Virus record (IMG/VR): IMGVR_UViG_641736226_000030
Source of the DNA: a virus
Lineage: Duplodnaviria > Heunggongvirae > Uroviricota > Caudoviricetes
Strand: one strand, 5' to 3'
DNA: 45,436 nt
Shown: positions 33,001 through 36,000 of the stretch, one piece after another
Layout: each line of letters starts with the position of its first letter
Position numbering within the stretch: position 1 is the first letter of the stretch
Made by a program: the position numbers

Positions 33001-36000
33001 TCGCCGTTATGGTTAACCACATAAAGAGAATCGCCGTGAAACGGCACGGTCATCATATTCATCGGTTATTTCCTTTTAGTGATGAACCCTGCGCACAGGA
33101 ATAACCAGCCCAAAGAGGGTTAACCAGACCACTGCCGGTTATCCACCAGGGCTCATCCTGAAAGGTTCTTTGGTTTATTTACGCTTGTGCGAAGCGCAGA
33201 AATGACAAAGGCACCATTACGGTGCCTCTTCATGAAACAATCTTGTTGACTTTATTCACTTACATTTTGCCAGTTCGCAGGATTTCGTGTTATCTGCCCG
33301 CGTTGGCCAACGTCATTTTTCAGCAAAATATTCTGCTTACCTGTCGATACCCCAGCATGCCAGCGCACTCTCCTGGTCACGTCTTGATACCTGACCGTAA
33401 CAGTTGTTTGAACGGATACGGCAGTCTCTGCCACCGTCCTTAATCCACCAGCGAATCGCCTCACACGCTCCCCTGCGATCGCCTGCATTAAGCCGCTTAT
33501 AAAACGTCGACGGGAAACACTTACCGGGGCCAATGTTATAGGGGCAAAATGACGCGATACCTGCTTTTTGTGGCTCGGTCAGTGGAACTTTTATATTACG
33601 CTCCACCCATGCCAGCGCCTTATCCCGTTCGATAGCGTTAACCCGGTCGCATTTTTCCTTCGACAGCTTCATGCCAGGAATCACAGGCTTACCATCCACC
33701 CGGGTGGCTCCACGGCAGATGGTCCAGATACCCGCACCATCACGGTATGCCGTGGTGTGGTTACCTTCCTTTTCATCCAGAAACTGGTCGAGGATTTCAG
33801 GCGCAGAAGCACCTGCGGCAATCAGCGCCAGAACGGCAGCCGATAAACCATAGCGGAGTTTCCTGCTCATCAGCTTACTCTCCCCGTGCCGCCTTACGCC
33901 TGTCCTCTCTGATTTTGAAATACAGGTTCGTCAGGTACGTCAGCAGACCAAACAGCAGACTCCCCAGCACGCCTATTGCCGCCCACTGAGACGGGGAAAC
34001 CCTGTCCAGCAACTGCAGGAACCAGTAGCCCGTTCCCACCGCTGACGTGGTGTATGACACACCTGTTGTGATTTTTTCCATCTGGTTCATACCCCGCCTC
34101 CCGCAATCCGGAAGCTCACAACAATAAAAAAGACCACCGGCACACACCGATGGTCCCTGACGCATGCTTACATCATCATGTCGCTGTCCGGTGTGGGGTC
34201 ACCGCTATCTGAAGCACTCCCCTCACCCGCGATGCCTTCCGGCTCCGGAGCTGCCGGTGCGCCCAGCAGTTCATCCAGAATGGCATCCACTTCTGCATCA
34301 AGACGCGCTTCCAGGTTATGGCGAAGTTTCTGTTTCAGTGCGCTCCGGACTTCTTCAGAGCGCAGGACGTCCTTCACTGCCTCTGCAGTGACCAGGGATG
34401 TAATTTCTGACATGGGATTTTCTCGTCGAAAGGTGTGATTAAGAAAGTTGCCGCTAAATGAGCGGCTCTTCGGGTTTGCTTCCGGCTGACTGACTGGCGC
34501 TGATTTTCTCAGCGGCCCTTTTGTCAATCTGTCTGCGCCAGAAGTCACGCATGGCCCTGTACCCACCCGAAAGGAGATACAGCACACAGACCACCGTACA
34601 GAAGTACAGCATTAACTGGTTCAGAAATGTCATAATTTCTTTCCGTTATTGTTGACAATAAGAACTGTTTTCATTAAAAACCAGAGTACGAAAGTATCGT
34701 TCCTTTATTTTTTCTCCATAGGTATCACCACCGCCAGCGTCCATTCCTGTCGCTGGCGGTTTTTTTATCATGCCGCAGTGTCTGTGCTGTTCACTTCCAC
34801 CGCAATGCTGTCAATCAGCACCGGGTAAGTCGCACCTCTGGTAATGTCTGTCACATGCAGTTTATCCGCCGCAAAGGCACTGACCGGTGACTGCGTCAGC
34901 GTGAACGGTGTGCCATCCTGACCATCAATAACCGGCGTCACCTGAAGGCTGTTATTCCCGGCAAAGCGGAAAGCCAGCGTATGCCATTCGTTATCAAATG
35001 CGCCAAAGCTTCCCAGTTTCAGGTTGTTTGTCGCCACTTTCGCATTGTGGTACATCACATTCAGGTCTTTTGCATCTGTCTGGATGTAGAACGCTGCCAG
35101 CAGGTTATTCCCCCCGACTCCGGTCAGGGCAACGCCCTGTGGCAGTGAAGATACCGGCCAGTAAAACGCCATAACATACTGGTTCGCAGCCAGCGCTCCC
35201 GAAACCTTAAAGCGGCAGCGAATCTGCCCCCCTTTCTGTAACAGAGCCGCACCGTTGCCCGCGGCGTACTCCAGCACCCAGCTGCTTTTACCGGCTTCCT
35301 TGGTCAGCTTCACTGCCTTACCTCCGGTTCCCTCCGCATCGCTGACCACTTCTGCCCTGCCGCCACTGGCTGACCATCCCTGTACTTTCAGGCTTCCCTC
35401 TGACTCGCTGACAAGGTAAGAGAGCAGTGTTGTGACGCCTGTGGCTTCTGCACCGGAAGGCGATGACGGGCGCACCTCTGATACTGTCGATGATGCCCCC
35501 GCGTTTAGCGCCACTCTTCCCGCATGGCGCAAAATCGCCGTTGCCAGACGGTCGGAAATAATCCCGCGGCGAGCCCATGAACTGAAATGGCTCGCCCTGT
35601 CCTGTGACGTCCAGGTGGCTGAGCTGTCACGCCATTTCGAACCGTAATACCCGATACCCGGAATGTCCGGGTCTTCTTCCGGTTTGTTCGTCGGCACATT
35701 CACCCCGTTCTCATCGGTCATGAACGGTACGAAATGGATATTCTTTTCCGTTTTGTTTTTGTAGCTGCCGTACACCGTCTGGTACGAGGATTCGTTCTTC
35801 TGCTTCCAGAAATACGTCGTATCTCCACAGATCCAGGGAACACCGCCAGCAGAGCCACCAACGCACTGACCTGCCATATCCGTCAGGTCTGCACGGAATT
35901 TATCAACCAGCGCACCAAACTGTGCTGCGTGATTTCCGGGCGTGCCGTCAAAATCAAATTCCCCCTGCATCCACACCACGGCAAACAGCACATTTTTCGG

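Follow-up and report, generated by a model that had tools for sequence, protein, structure and literature searches.

A predicted small RNA locus beside nanS-p in an Stx2a phage that looks like a previously undescribed relative of Esr41

Esr41 and small RNAs encoded near prophage late genes

The EHEC RNA Esr41, an Hfq-dependent sRNA, represses chuA, cirA, and bfr, confers colicin resistance, and affects both the LEE and motility. Its seed octamer region pairs with the ribosome-binding site of chuA, as demonstrated by compensatory mutations; the residues mutated were the GGG directly 3' of UUCUCCAU, and compensatory changes brought chuA, cirA, and bfr back under regulation (Waters et al. 2017). 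The pairing site in chuA is CCUCAUGGAGAAUCGCUAUG. EcOnc32, which is encoded in the Sakai prophage Sp3, gives an Hfq-CRAC peak in five of five datasets and a band of ~112 nt on Northern blots, and in a CLASH hybrid its UUCUCCAC pairs with the ribosome-binding site of entC. PasA (85 nt) and PasC (79 nt), from EPEC E2348/69, are Northern-validated, Hfq-dependent RNAs encoded antisense between esterase and holin genes, the 3' end of PasC abutting the esterase stop codon. The same slot is occupied in Sakai by EcOnc51 and EcOnc52 (prophages Sp12 and Sp4, respectively), which appear as Hfq-CRAC peaks with terminators.

The anti-sRNAs AsxR and AgvB resemble the predicted RNA described here in that they are short, encoded in prophages, and convergent with the late operon; both are Hfq-bound. 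AsxR de-represses the haem oxygenase ChuS, and together with StxS it links Stx2a phages to host haem, iron, and stress physiology. No elements have a closer link to severe EHEC disease than these phages, among them 933W and Sp5.

A predicted promoter-terminator unit convergent with the late operon

The stretch of phage DNA that was analysed (the window) comprises 45,436 nt of the IMG/VR record IMGVR_UViG_641736226_000030, and the features of the locus and its flanks are as follows.

34454-34633, minus strand: gene for a DUF1378 protein of 59 aa (ORF and Pfam)
34652-34657, plus strand: -35 hexamer TTGACA, a perfect sigma-70 consensus, read from the sequence
34658-34674, plus strand: spacer of 17 nt, read from the sequence
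34675-34680, plus strand: putative -10 hexamer TAAAAA, 17 nt past the -35 hexamer, read from the sequence
34686-34766, plus strand: predicted sRNA of ~79-81 nt, with a putative 5' end at 34686-34688 and its 3' end in the T run
34703-34719, plus strand: U-rich single-stranded stretch CUUUAUUUUUUCUCCAU, ending in the octamer
34712-34719, plus strand: octamer UUCUCCAU, a candidate seed and anti-Shine-Dalgarno element (conservation and Esr41 homology)
34721-34729, plus strand: weak middle hairpin GGUAUCACC (GGU/ACC), lining up with helix 2 in both the Esr41 model and model R2 (see below)
34730-34766, plus strand: intrinsic terminator, ACCGCCAGCG, an 11-nt loop, and CGCUGGCGGU, then U7 (sequence, fold, and chance test)
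34731-34739 and 34751-34759, plus strand: hairpin arms CCGCCAGCG and CGCTGGCGG, forming 9 bp, or 10 bp with A34730:T34760, around the 11-nt loop
34760-34766, plus strand: T7 run, read from the sequence
34768-36705, minus strand: nanS-p, 645 aa, with DUF1737, SASA esterase, and DUF6645 domains (ORF and Pfam)

The preliminary description of this DNA had pointed to a TTGACA hexamer, a 17-nt spacer, and TAAAAA, followed by a strong terminator, and this arrangement is confirmed by sequence, fold, and shuffles. TAAAAA matches the sigma-70 -10 consensus at four of six positions; it has the A at position 2 and lacks the T at position 6. A promoter scan of the window did not call the TTGACA/TAAAAA pair because its rule requires a T at the latter position. 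The -10 hexamers of related alleles are likewise atypical and A-rich, and TAAAAA is kept at 17-18 nt from the -35 hexamer in variants, despite indels of 1-2 nt. TTGAC is invariant across all type III and type IV variants, while TTGACA is also found in Esr41, PasA/PasC, and EcOnc51/52, and is replaced by TTGACT in one divergent phage. The 5' end of the RNA was placed from promoter geometry and by analogy with PasA and PasC, whose published 5' ends lie 7 nt past the -10 hexamer, at identical spacing.

The stem of the terminator, at 9-10 bp, is rich in G+C and is followed directly on the plus strand by a U tract, as in an intrinsic terminator. On the minus strand the same hairpin leads into UGGUGAUACC, which holds no U tract, and the structure is thus a one-way, plus-strand terminator that faces the wrong way to stop the late operon, as had been proposed. 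Only an inner 5-bp sub-hairpin (34747-34759) was reported here by the terminator scan, because its loop limit is 8 nt. For the predicted 83-nt RNA the folding energy is -23 kcal/mol (z = -4.6), a stability that none of 200 shuffles matches. Strict terminators, defined by a perfect stem of at least 8 bp with at least 5 G:C pairs, a loop of 3-12 nt, and at least 6 T, number two on both strands of the 45-kb window, against a mean of 0.005 in 200 dinucleotide shuffles. The full unit, in which TTGACA, 16-18 nt, and a TA-type hexamer are followed 40-250 nt further on by a strict terminator, occurs once in the window, at the present locus (79 nt apart), and in none of 200 dinucleotide shuffles.

Comparison of variants shows that the T run is kept in every one of them, at a length of 6-9 T, and that the terminator helix is preserved through double substitutions across related types; a hand-made alignment of the terminator arms of all types displays compensatory changes in 4 of 9 pairs. 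Among type III copies the 7-bp terminator core never varies, and covariation within the allele is therefore uninformative either way.

The locus lies between nanS-p and the genes for the DUF1378 protein, DUF826, holin, and lysozyme, all of which are on the minus strand. Just 1 nt separates the end of the T run from the nanS-p stop codon, whose complement occupies 34768-34770, and 19 nt separate the -35 hexamer from the DUF1378 start codon, which is on the opposite strand. This antisense placement in the gap between esterase and holin/lysozyme genes is the layout described for PasA/PasC by Pearl Mizrahi et al. and by Zhu et al. The locus is identical to PasA/PasC and EcOnc51/52 in slot, orientation, and convergence with the late operon and similar to them in size (79-85 nt), and all of them have in common TTGACA, a GCCAGCG/CGCUGGC terminator core, and U7; in PasC, EcOnc51, and EcOnc52 the terminator abuts the esterase stop codon, as it does in the window. 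The RNA bodies of PasA/PasC and EcOnc51/52, in contrast, are unrelated to that of the present locus and lack UUCUCCA. R1, a covariance model made from PasA, PasC, and EcOnc51/52, recognised only the terminator half of the locus (model positions 49-87, 17.8 bits, E 0.19) and also missed EcOnc32, while blastn searches of the window with PasA and PasC returned nothing at the locus. Zhu et al. assign PasA/PasC by blastn coverage of >75%, of which the locus falls short, only its terminator aligning. Since the R1 match is confined to the terminator half, membership of PasA/PasC was rejected, and the locus is not classed with these RNAs.

Other described RNAs were also considered. AsxR maps elsewhere in the window by Rfam, at 36857-36909, 2.1 kb from the locus on the other side of nanS-p, and, with hits accepted up to E 10, neither RF02702 nor RF02703 (AgvB/AsxR, ~42-nt 3' region) matched the locus; AsxR, a sponge for host sRNAs of 51-60 nt, is unrelated in sequence, and its identity with the locus was rejected. 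EcOnc10-12, which had been candidates on account of their spacing, were rejected as well, being HnrS, past Rz, and having no match at the locus.

Relationship to Esr41 and EcOnc32

Judged by sequence and structure comparison, the locus is a diverged paralogue of Esr41 (RF02676) and of the Hfq-bound Sakai RNA EcOnc32. An Rfam scan at the gathering threshold found no match at the locus, and the link to Esr41 emerged only in a permissive scan, in which the Esr41 model gave a full-length match at 34691-34768 (model positions 1-74) with 28.1 bits, far below the gathering threshold of 102 bits, and an E-value of 6.7e-4 that refers to 131 nt searched with 4,227 families. The same model scores true Esr41 at 108.6 bits, and EcOnc32 and the Sakai Sp15 copy at 32.3 and 30.9 bits, both of which are also sub-threshold. 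By blastn, Esr41 and the window are 77% identical over 62 nt in the 3' part (E 1e-4). A second covariance model, R2, was built from Esr41 and EcOnc32-type sequences only, with the candidate left out; its top match in the window falls at 34698-34765, with 32.7 bits and an E-value of 1.7e-6, the next-best reaching 14 bits, and PasA/PasC and EcOnc51/52 score only 15-20 bits with it. Of the cells in the family alignment, 86.6% are paired, compared with 74.5% for shuffles, and double changes are present in 13 of 21 pairs; none of 500 shuffles equals the score of the alignment. With respect to the three-helix layout, the window allele keeps the terminator, has a weak middle hairpin, and is gapped at helix 1 in the R2 alignment.

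The features shared with Esr41/EcOnc14 are the TTGACA promoter and a single-stranded UUUUCUCCAU that precedes a small hairpin, a terminator of the form CCGCC.GC/GC.GGCG, and UUUUUUUAUCA. The two RNAs are identical at 53 of 82 aligned positions overall, with lengths of 74 nt for Esr41 and ~80 nt for the window locus, but differ in the 5' hairpin. The middle hairpin has as its Esr41 counterpart GGGGUAUUCCC, and only its two central G:C pairs are preserved in all family members. EcOnc32 and the window locus, which are identical at 62 of 103 aligned positions, both contain TTGACAATAA at the promoter, UUUCUCCA, CGCCAGCG/CGCUGGC, and a U tract, whereas EcOnc32 differs in the greater length of its terminator loop and stem, in having a clear 5' hairpin, and in the GGGGAAUAUCCCC of its middle hairpin. 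Esr41 is encoded in SpLE1, beside iha, unlike the window locus, whose place is the late region of the phage, on the strand antisense to the late operon; EcOnc32 has the same orientation as the latter and adjoins a remnant of the 3' end of an esterase gene. The comparison suggests that Esr41 itself came from the nanS-p/holin position of a phage. The discrete plus-strand sRNA gene of ~80 nt envisaged in the preliminary description thus gains support, still as a prediction, from the small RNAs of the slot and from homology to Esr41 and EcOnc32.

An octamer, UUCUCCA(U/C), is common to the window locus, Esr41, and EcOnc32 and forms part of the validated Esr41 seed; in the window locus it is single-stranded and lies 5' of the terminator. 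Every type III variant, every EcOnc32-type variant, and Esr41 have TTCTCCA unchanged, while adjacent bases diverge. The Esr41 seed is only partly kept, because the octamer is followed by AGG in the window allele and by GGGG in Esr41, and for the same reason the set of targets probably differs from that of Esr41. With chuA the window allele can form 8 contiguous pairs where Esr41 forms 12, and in duplex energy with chuA, bfr, and entC it does not outperform shuffled controls; RNAduplex runs against all translation starts in the window (ORFs of at least 50 aa) likewise gave nothing above the background tail. Since neither the phage nor the chuA/bfr/entC tests gave a signal, the targets proposed below are drawn from homology only.

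The window allele is present in 234 phage records and in 664 of 5,426 complete E. coli genomes (~12%), where it occupies 1,551 places, with up to 6 per genome, and it is the commonest form in Stx2a phages. Sakai has two copies, one in Sp5 that is identical to the window and one in Sp15. The Sp5 copy maps to the minus strand at 1,271,945-1,272,025 of NC_002695.1 (1,272,087-1,272,167 of NC_002695.2), and the Sp15 copy to the plus strand at about 2,922,090-2,922,165 of NC_002695.2. In phage PhiR12_2 the module is intact beside a different upstream gene end. A search of genome contigs with the pattern TTCTCCA-N-CCGCCAG-N-CTGGCGG was too loose to be of use, chance hits in unrelated G+C-rich genomes being among the matches listed.

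Potential functions of the locus

These comparisons favour, with reasonable but far from complete confidence, a self-contained sRNA gene of an Stx2a phage whose product of ~80 nt is Hfq-dependent and acts in trans. Host sigma-70 RNA polymerase would start transcription at approximately 34686-34688 from the consensus -35 and A-rich -10 hexamers, and the hairpin and U7 at 34730-34766, whose structure is evident, would stop it to release the ~80-nt RNA, the diverged Esr41/EcOnc32 paralogue described above. Hfq may bind through the U tail of the terminator and the internal U-rich stretch, as in Esr41/EcOnc32, and UUCUCCAU would pair in trans with Shine-Dalgarno regions of host mRNAs, leading to repression of translation. 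By homology, the likeliest targets would be iron-uptake mRNAs of the kind controlled by Esr41 (chuA, cirA, bfr) and EcOnc32 (entC).

A reading that seems unlikely is that the locus is a silent or decaying relic, in which the promoter and terminator of a former Esr41-like gene are still recognisable but useful expression has ceased. This would fit with a weak -10 hexamer devoid of the T at position 6, with the lack in the window allele of a recoverable helix 1 such as Esr41 and EcOnc32 have, and with published expression data. None of the 63 orphan Hfq peaks in the Sakai Hfq-CRAC study (Table S2 of Tree et al. 2014) corresponds to the Sp5 or the Sp15 copy, although comparable neighbours, EcOnc51/52, were called there at the equivalent position, and the Sakai CLASH tables contain no hybrid with the coordinates of the locus or allele-specific sequence (Waters et al. 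2017). Hfq-binding data had been put forward as a check on the RNA, and the outcome is negative for both Sakai copies; because neither is listed in the Hfq-CRAC or CLASH tables, the sRNA of the window allele remains predicted. In the literature, neither a printed sequence of the allele nor main-text mentions of EcOnc32, EcOnc51, and EcOnc52 were found. These published datasets, however, represent one medium and one growth phase, and the -10 hexamer of EcOnc32, an abundant RNA, is just as atypical. A decaying gene is also difficult to reconcile with what variants as distant as 73% identity retain while their intervening segments diverge, namely the -35 hexamer, an A-rich -10 hexamer spaced from it by 17-18 nt, the octamer, the core of the terminator, and the T run, or with the compensatory C:G to U:A change that leaves the stem intact in phage POCJ13. 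Furthermore, the allele is multicopy and commonest in Stx2a phages.

It is rather improbable that the RNA acts purely in cis, pairing at the nanS-p/DUF1378 junction to govern how the stx-nanS-p or lysis mRNAs are processed or how stable they are, with no targets in trans. The late transcript contains a perfect 81-nt complement of the predicted sRNA, convergence with the late operon is common to all alleles in the slot, and the RIL-seq partners of PasA include 3' ends of esterase genes. PasA and PasC, however, have many partners in trans, and among characterised homologues the closest, Esr41, acts in trans and has SpLE1 flanks that hold neither esterase nor lysis genes. In addition, the octamer is conserved where its complementary strand is non-coding spacer, and antisense pairing would have no need for one invariant 8-mer. 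The antisense emphasis of the preliminary description is thus upheld as regards convergence with the late operon but finds less support as regards the mode of action, because Esr41 is trans-acting and the conserved octamer belongs to its validated trans seed. In the trans-acting reading favoured above, the perfect complement in the late transcript could also allow some cis pairing at induction as a secondary effect, which is not required to account for the locus.

An insulator, in which the terminator blocks stray antisense transcription into nanS-p and stx and the promoter hexamers are incidental, is very unlikely: the terminator is strong and one-way, and the curators of phage 434 labelled equivalent hairpins as terminators only, but a consensus -35 hexamer lies at a fixed distance in every allele, the mapped 5' ends of homologues are 7 nt past the hexamer, and homology to Esr41 covers the RNA body beyond the terminator. 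The 41-aa minus-strand ORF at 34646-34771, which overlaps the nanS-p stop codon and is annotated as a hypothetical protein in some phage records, can be dismissed as highly implausible, because it has no Pfam match and because T-run length (6-9 T) and 1-2 nt A-run indels shift its frame at codons 2-4 and near its end.

A more speculative proposal, which is given little weight here, extends the trans-acting reading to the phage life cycle. Alongside AsxR, the Stx2a phage would encode an Esr41-type regulator of its own, directed at iron and haem uptake by the host, and at induction the late transcript would sponge or destroy this RNA and that of near-identical prophage copies, switching off the lysogen programme, while prophage number (up to 6 copies) would set the seed dose. 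Since the gene is convergent with the late operon, the very abundant late transcript made on prophage induction would contain its perfect 81-nt complement.

If the RNA is expressed, Stx2a phages would also deliver an Esr41-type RNA, one whose gene is present in ~12% of complete E. coli genomes, often in several copies. The comparison also ties together Esr41 of SpLE1, EcOnc32, and the nanS-p/holin slot of PasA/PasC, which have been treated separately in the published work compared here.

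The promoter–terminator unit beside nanS-p

The window is an Stx2a-converting phage whose segment 34400-34900 shares 100% identity with phi346, VT2phi_272 and PA2; for 933W and VT2-Sakai the identity is 99.6%. The candidate small RNA (sRNA) gene lies on the plus strand, antisense to the late operon, and its terminator abuts the esterase gene nanS-p.

Features of the late-operon neighbourhood
33337-33870, minus strand, late operon: lysozyme
33875-34165, minus strand, late operon: holin
34168-34416, minus strand, late operon: DUF826 gene
34454-34633, minus strand, late operon: DUF1378 gene
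34731-34739 (CCGCCAGCG) and 34751-34759 (CGCTGGCGG), plus strand: terminator arms, 11-nt loop
34760-34766, plus strand: T7, ending 1 nt short of the complement of the nanS-p stop codon
34768-36705, minus strand, late operon: nanS-p (DUF1737, SASA, DUF6645)
36857-36909, plus strand: AsxR, 88 bits
36911-37116, minus strand, late operon: STnc100/EcOnc27-type sRNA, 208 bits
37191-37460, minus strand, late operon: stx2B
37472-38431, minus strand, late operon: stx2A
38525-38773, minus strand, late operon: three tRNAs

Read directly from the sequence, all coordinates of the preliminary description are correct, including TTGACA (34652-34657), the 17-nt spacer and TAAAAA (34675-34680). The hairpin does face the wrong way to stop the late operon, as had been claimed: on the minus strand an A run precedes it and no U run follows, and termination is therefore possible for plus-strand transcription only. 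The proposed plus-strand RNA of about 80 nt is also supported by comparison. For PasA and PasC, two sRNAs of EPEC E2348/69, the 5' ends as published fall exactly 7 nt past a hexamer spaced 17 nt from TTGACA; with equal spacing, the RNA of the window would begin at 34686-34688 and measure 79-81 nt. Its fold has an energy of -23 kcal/mol (z = -4.6).

A promoter scan of the window did not call the locus promoter, because TAAAAA lacks a T at position 6, and the terminator scan reported the inner 5-bp hairpin only, owing to its loop limit. The unit is non-random. Strict terminators (perfect stem of at least 8 bp, at least 5 G:C pairs, loop of 3-12, at least 6 T) number two on both strands of the window, against a mean of 0.005 in 200 dinucleotide shuffles, and the combination of promoter and strict terminator occurs once, delimiting a 79-nt RNA, and in none of the 200 shuffles. 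The other strict terminator lies at 19273-19291 (plus strand; 8-bp perfect stem, 3-nt loop, T6).

AsxR is a known "anti-stx2" sRNA; as it sits 2.1 kb away, the locus is distinct from it, and AsxR was ruled out as its identity. Plus-strand sRNA genes, one of them the candidate, thus stand at both sides of nanS-p and point into the late operon. In the stx2B/nanS-p gap, AsxR and the STnc100/EcOnc27-type sRNA form a convergent pair with 2 nt between them. Elsewhere in the window, a full-length match (16722-16838, plus strand, 121.5 bits) to the ALIL pseudoknot, a frameshift element of IS3-family transposases, indicates an IS629/IS1203-like insertion sequence.

Small RNAs and alleles of the esterase/lysis slot

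The orphan Hfq-binding peaks with Rho-independent terminators reported in Sakai by Tree et al. (2014) include EcOnc51, EcOnc52 and EcOnc32. In EPEC, PasA and PasC were validated by Northern blot and found to be Hfq-dependent by Pearl Mizrahi et al. (2021), who noted EcOnc51/52 as their homologues.

Small RNAs, tandem units and sequence types of the slot
EcOnc51: Sakai prophage Sp12, 2237479-2237555, plus strand; Hfq peak (Tree et al. 2014); type I
EcOnc52: Sakai prophage Sp4, 1181998-1182075, minus strand; Hfq peak (Tree et al. 2014); type I
PasC: E2348/69, 1290909 to 1290832, minus strand; 79 nt; type II
Window locus, its identical copy in Sakai Sp5, and Sakai Sp15: type III
EcOnc32: Sakai prophage Sp3, 901574-901662, minus strand; peak in 5/5 datasets, Northern ~112 nt (Tree et al. 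2014); type IV
PasA: E2348/69, 743499 to 743415, minus strand; 85 nt, minor 236-nt form ending at 743264
Tandem units of Sakai Sp12: 4925-5035 and 5085-5190 of sequence L004
Tandem units of E2348/69 PP2: 2465-2590 and 2616-2700 of sequence L007

In Sakai, EcOnc51 and EcOnc52, whose sequences are confirmed by CLASH reads, sit in antisense orientation immediately past a nanS-p homologue's stop codon, and EcOnc32 lies antisense immediately past the remnant of the 3' end of such a gene. The three are built alike: TTGACA is followed at about 17 nt by an A-rich hexamer, then by a body of 50-90 nt and a GCCAGCG...CGCTGGC hairpin, behind which comes a T run. PasA and PasC are located between a SASA esterase gene, to which they are antisense, and the downstream lysis module; PasC ends at a distance of 1 nt from the stop codon of its esterase gene. 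The gene order esterase-pasA/pasC-holin-lysozyme is given by Zhu, Shabalina and Storz (2026 preprint), who report that PasA is confined to about 25 phage genomes, with stx1 in 92% of these. The tandem antisense units stand between holin and esterase genes, a PasA-type unit followed by an EcOnc51-type one; the end of the minor PasA species coincides with the second terminator, as would be expected if the first is read through, and one CLASH read spans the second unit's promoter.

In pattern scans of phage records and IMG/VR, the units that abut the esterase stop codon fall into four sequence types, PasA being an additional unit that can stand upstream of another as a tandem. Type III occurs in 234 phage records, mostly of Stx2a and also of Stx1a and Stx2c phages, and, among 5,426 complete E. 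coli genomes, in 664, which together have 1,551 sites (median 2 per genome, maximum 6). Its divergent copies (POCJ13, 93% identity; PhiR12_2, 82%; Stx2_KH16-043, 73.5%; and one further variant) keep TTGAC(A/T), an A-rich hexamer at 17-18 nt, CGAAAG, TTCTCCAT and the CCGCCAG/CTGGCGG core with its T run, while the intervening segments differ. In PhiR12_2 an intact unit stands next to a different upstream gene end, the sequence that follows the T run; the unit is thus modular in behaviour.

Among otherwise near-identical copies, the terminator run varies from 6 to 9 T (window 34760-34767; L255, L261, L275, L318 and others), and the putative -10 carries 5 to 6 A, with or without extra T. Such length differences could adjust promoter spacing, Hfq binding or termination. 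They also shift the frame of a 41-aa minus-strand ORF, which has no family match and was rejected.

Homology to Esr41 and EcOnc32

A covariance model built from types I and II plus PasA (R1) has its best window match at the locus, in the terminator half only (17.8 bits, E 0.19), and its search missed EcOnc32; membership of the PasA/PasC family by sequence was therefore rejected. R1 also weakly matches (12.9 bits, E 1.8) a GCCAGCC...GGCUGGC hairpin followed by U6 at 38935-38967 (minus strand), upstream of the tRNAs. Judged by position, this is probably the tR' terminator that makes the StxS 3' end; its stem is similar to the core of the terminators of esterase-slot sRNAs.

A permissive Rfam scan of the locus gave a single match, over the full model of Esr41 (RF02676), the iron- and virulence-regulating RNA of EHEC (34691-34768, plus strand, E 6.7e-4), at 28.1 bits and thus below the gathering score of 102. 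The aligned blocks are UUUUCUCCAU, G.UAU..CC, CCGCC.GC...GC.GGCG and UUUUUUUAU. EcOnc32 (32.3 bits) and the Sp15 copy (30.9 bits) are also sub-threshold matches; Esr41 itself (SpLE1, L350 2048-2121) scores 108.6 bits. With blastn, Esr41 finds 34710-34770 in the 45-kb window (77% identity over 62 nt, E 1e-4), and in global alignments the locus is identical to Esr41 at 53/82 positions and to EcOnc32 at 62/103. As an independent membership test, a model made from Esr41 and four EcOnc32-type sequences only (R2) recovers 34698-34765 (plus strand) at 32.7 bits (E 1.7e-6), the next-best window match having 14 bits. Other type III copies score 20.9-34.6 bits, except the most divergent, Stx2_KH16-043 (12.6 bits, E 0.29), and types I and II reach 15-20 bits only.

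The model-fitted family alignment, which leans toward structure because it was fitted to structure, has 86.6% paired cells, against 74.5% in shuffles, and double changes in 13/21 pairs; its scores were reached by no shuffle, and slid controls fell far below. When the nine outer terminator pairs of all types are aligned by hand, compensatory changes (A:U to C:G, C:G to U:A, G:C to A:U) occur at 4 pairs, with a covariation score of 0.194 vs 0.112, reached by 5/500 shuffles.

Like the locus, Esr41 has its own promoter with TTGACA, and its terminator is followed by TTTTTTTATCA (L350 2113-2123), the junction at which phages carry the nanS-p stop codon in its complementary form. This suggests that Esr41 may derive from the phage esterase/lysis slot.

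Seed, proposed action and alternative readings

Esr41 represses in trans and depends on Hfq; compensatory mutation has confirmed that it acts directly on chuA, cirA and bfr (Waters et al. 2017): Esr41-M1 alters the GGG directly 3' of UUCUCCAU, and chuA-M1 carries the matching change of CTC in ...TTTTCCTCATGGAGAATCG, the chuA Shine-Dalgarno region. The octamer UUCUCCA(U/C) (window 34712-34719), common to Esr41, EcOnc32 and the window RNA, thus belongs to an anti-Shine-Dalgarno seed that has been validated in Esr41. In a CLASH hybrid of EcOnc32, ...CATTTCTCCACGGGGAAT is linked to ...TTTTGTGGAGGATGATATGGAT of the entC leader; thus a second member of the UUCUCCA group touches an iron-uptake mRNA, beside Esr41 with chuA, cirA and bfr. 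The entC partner (L353 800-880, Sakai) lies just downstream of a Fur-box-like ATAAATGATAATCATTATT.

Hfq-dependent sRNAs usually have a terminator tail of at least 7 U and an upstream U-rich stretch. The window RNA has a U7 tail and the stretch CUUUAUUUUUUCU. In view of these features, the Esr41 homology and the shared octamer, we favour the reading that the locus is a stand-alone, sigma-70-driven, Hfq-dependent, trans-acting sRNA gene, which we regard as reasonably probable: sigma-70 polymerase would make the RNA, Hfq would bind it, and it would repress in trans. The analysis establishes the sequence features and their departure from chance, the homology and how conservation is distributed; transcription, Hfq binding and targets are inferred from these. 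The best guess for its targets would be iron-uptake mRNAs. Its seed is only partly kept, with AGG instead of the GGGG of Esr41, which leaves a run of 8 base pairs to chuA where Esr41 has 12, and crude duplex energies with chuA, bfr and entC are no better than those of shuffles, so that any specific target is hypothetical.

Neither Sakai type III copy (Sp5, Sp15) is listed in the Hfq-CRAC peak table of Tree et al. (2014), and the published CLASH tables (Waters et al. 2017) hold no coordinates or reads specific to the type III allele. Closeness to an opposite-strand ORF is an unlikely cause of the former absence, since EcOnc51/52 were called in an equivalent position. Together with the atypical -10, these absences keep alive the reading that the locus is a silent relic, no longer usefully expressed; the conservation pattern across alleles, down to 73% identity, speaks against it, and we hold it to be unlikely. 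A purely cis-antisense role is conceivable because the late transcript contains a perfect complement, but it would leave both the invariant octamer and the trans action of Esr41 unexplained, and is quite improbable. That the terminator is solely an insulator is very improbable, given the fixed promoter and the homology of the RNA body.

The locus sequence was not found printed in the papers searched, and those read name no sRNA for this site of 933W or of Sp5-type phages; Zhu et al. remark only that matches to the Esr41 model are frequent near PasD. Rfam holds no family for PasA/PasC, EcOnc32 or EcOnc51/52. The locus is best rated as a candidate Esr41/EcOnc32-type sRNA gene in the PasA/PasC slot of Stx2a phages. 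Its class, slot and likely mechanism are already known; it is of note that the phages carrying it are those of greatest clinical importance among Stx phages, that it is multicopy, and that public data would allow a cheap test.
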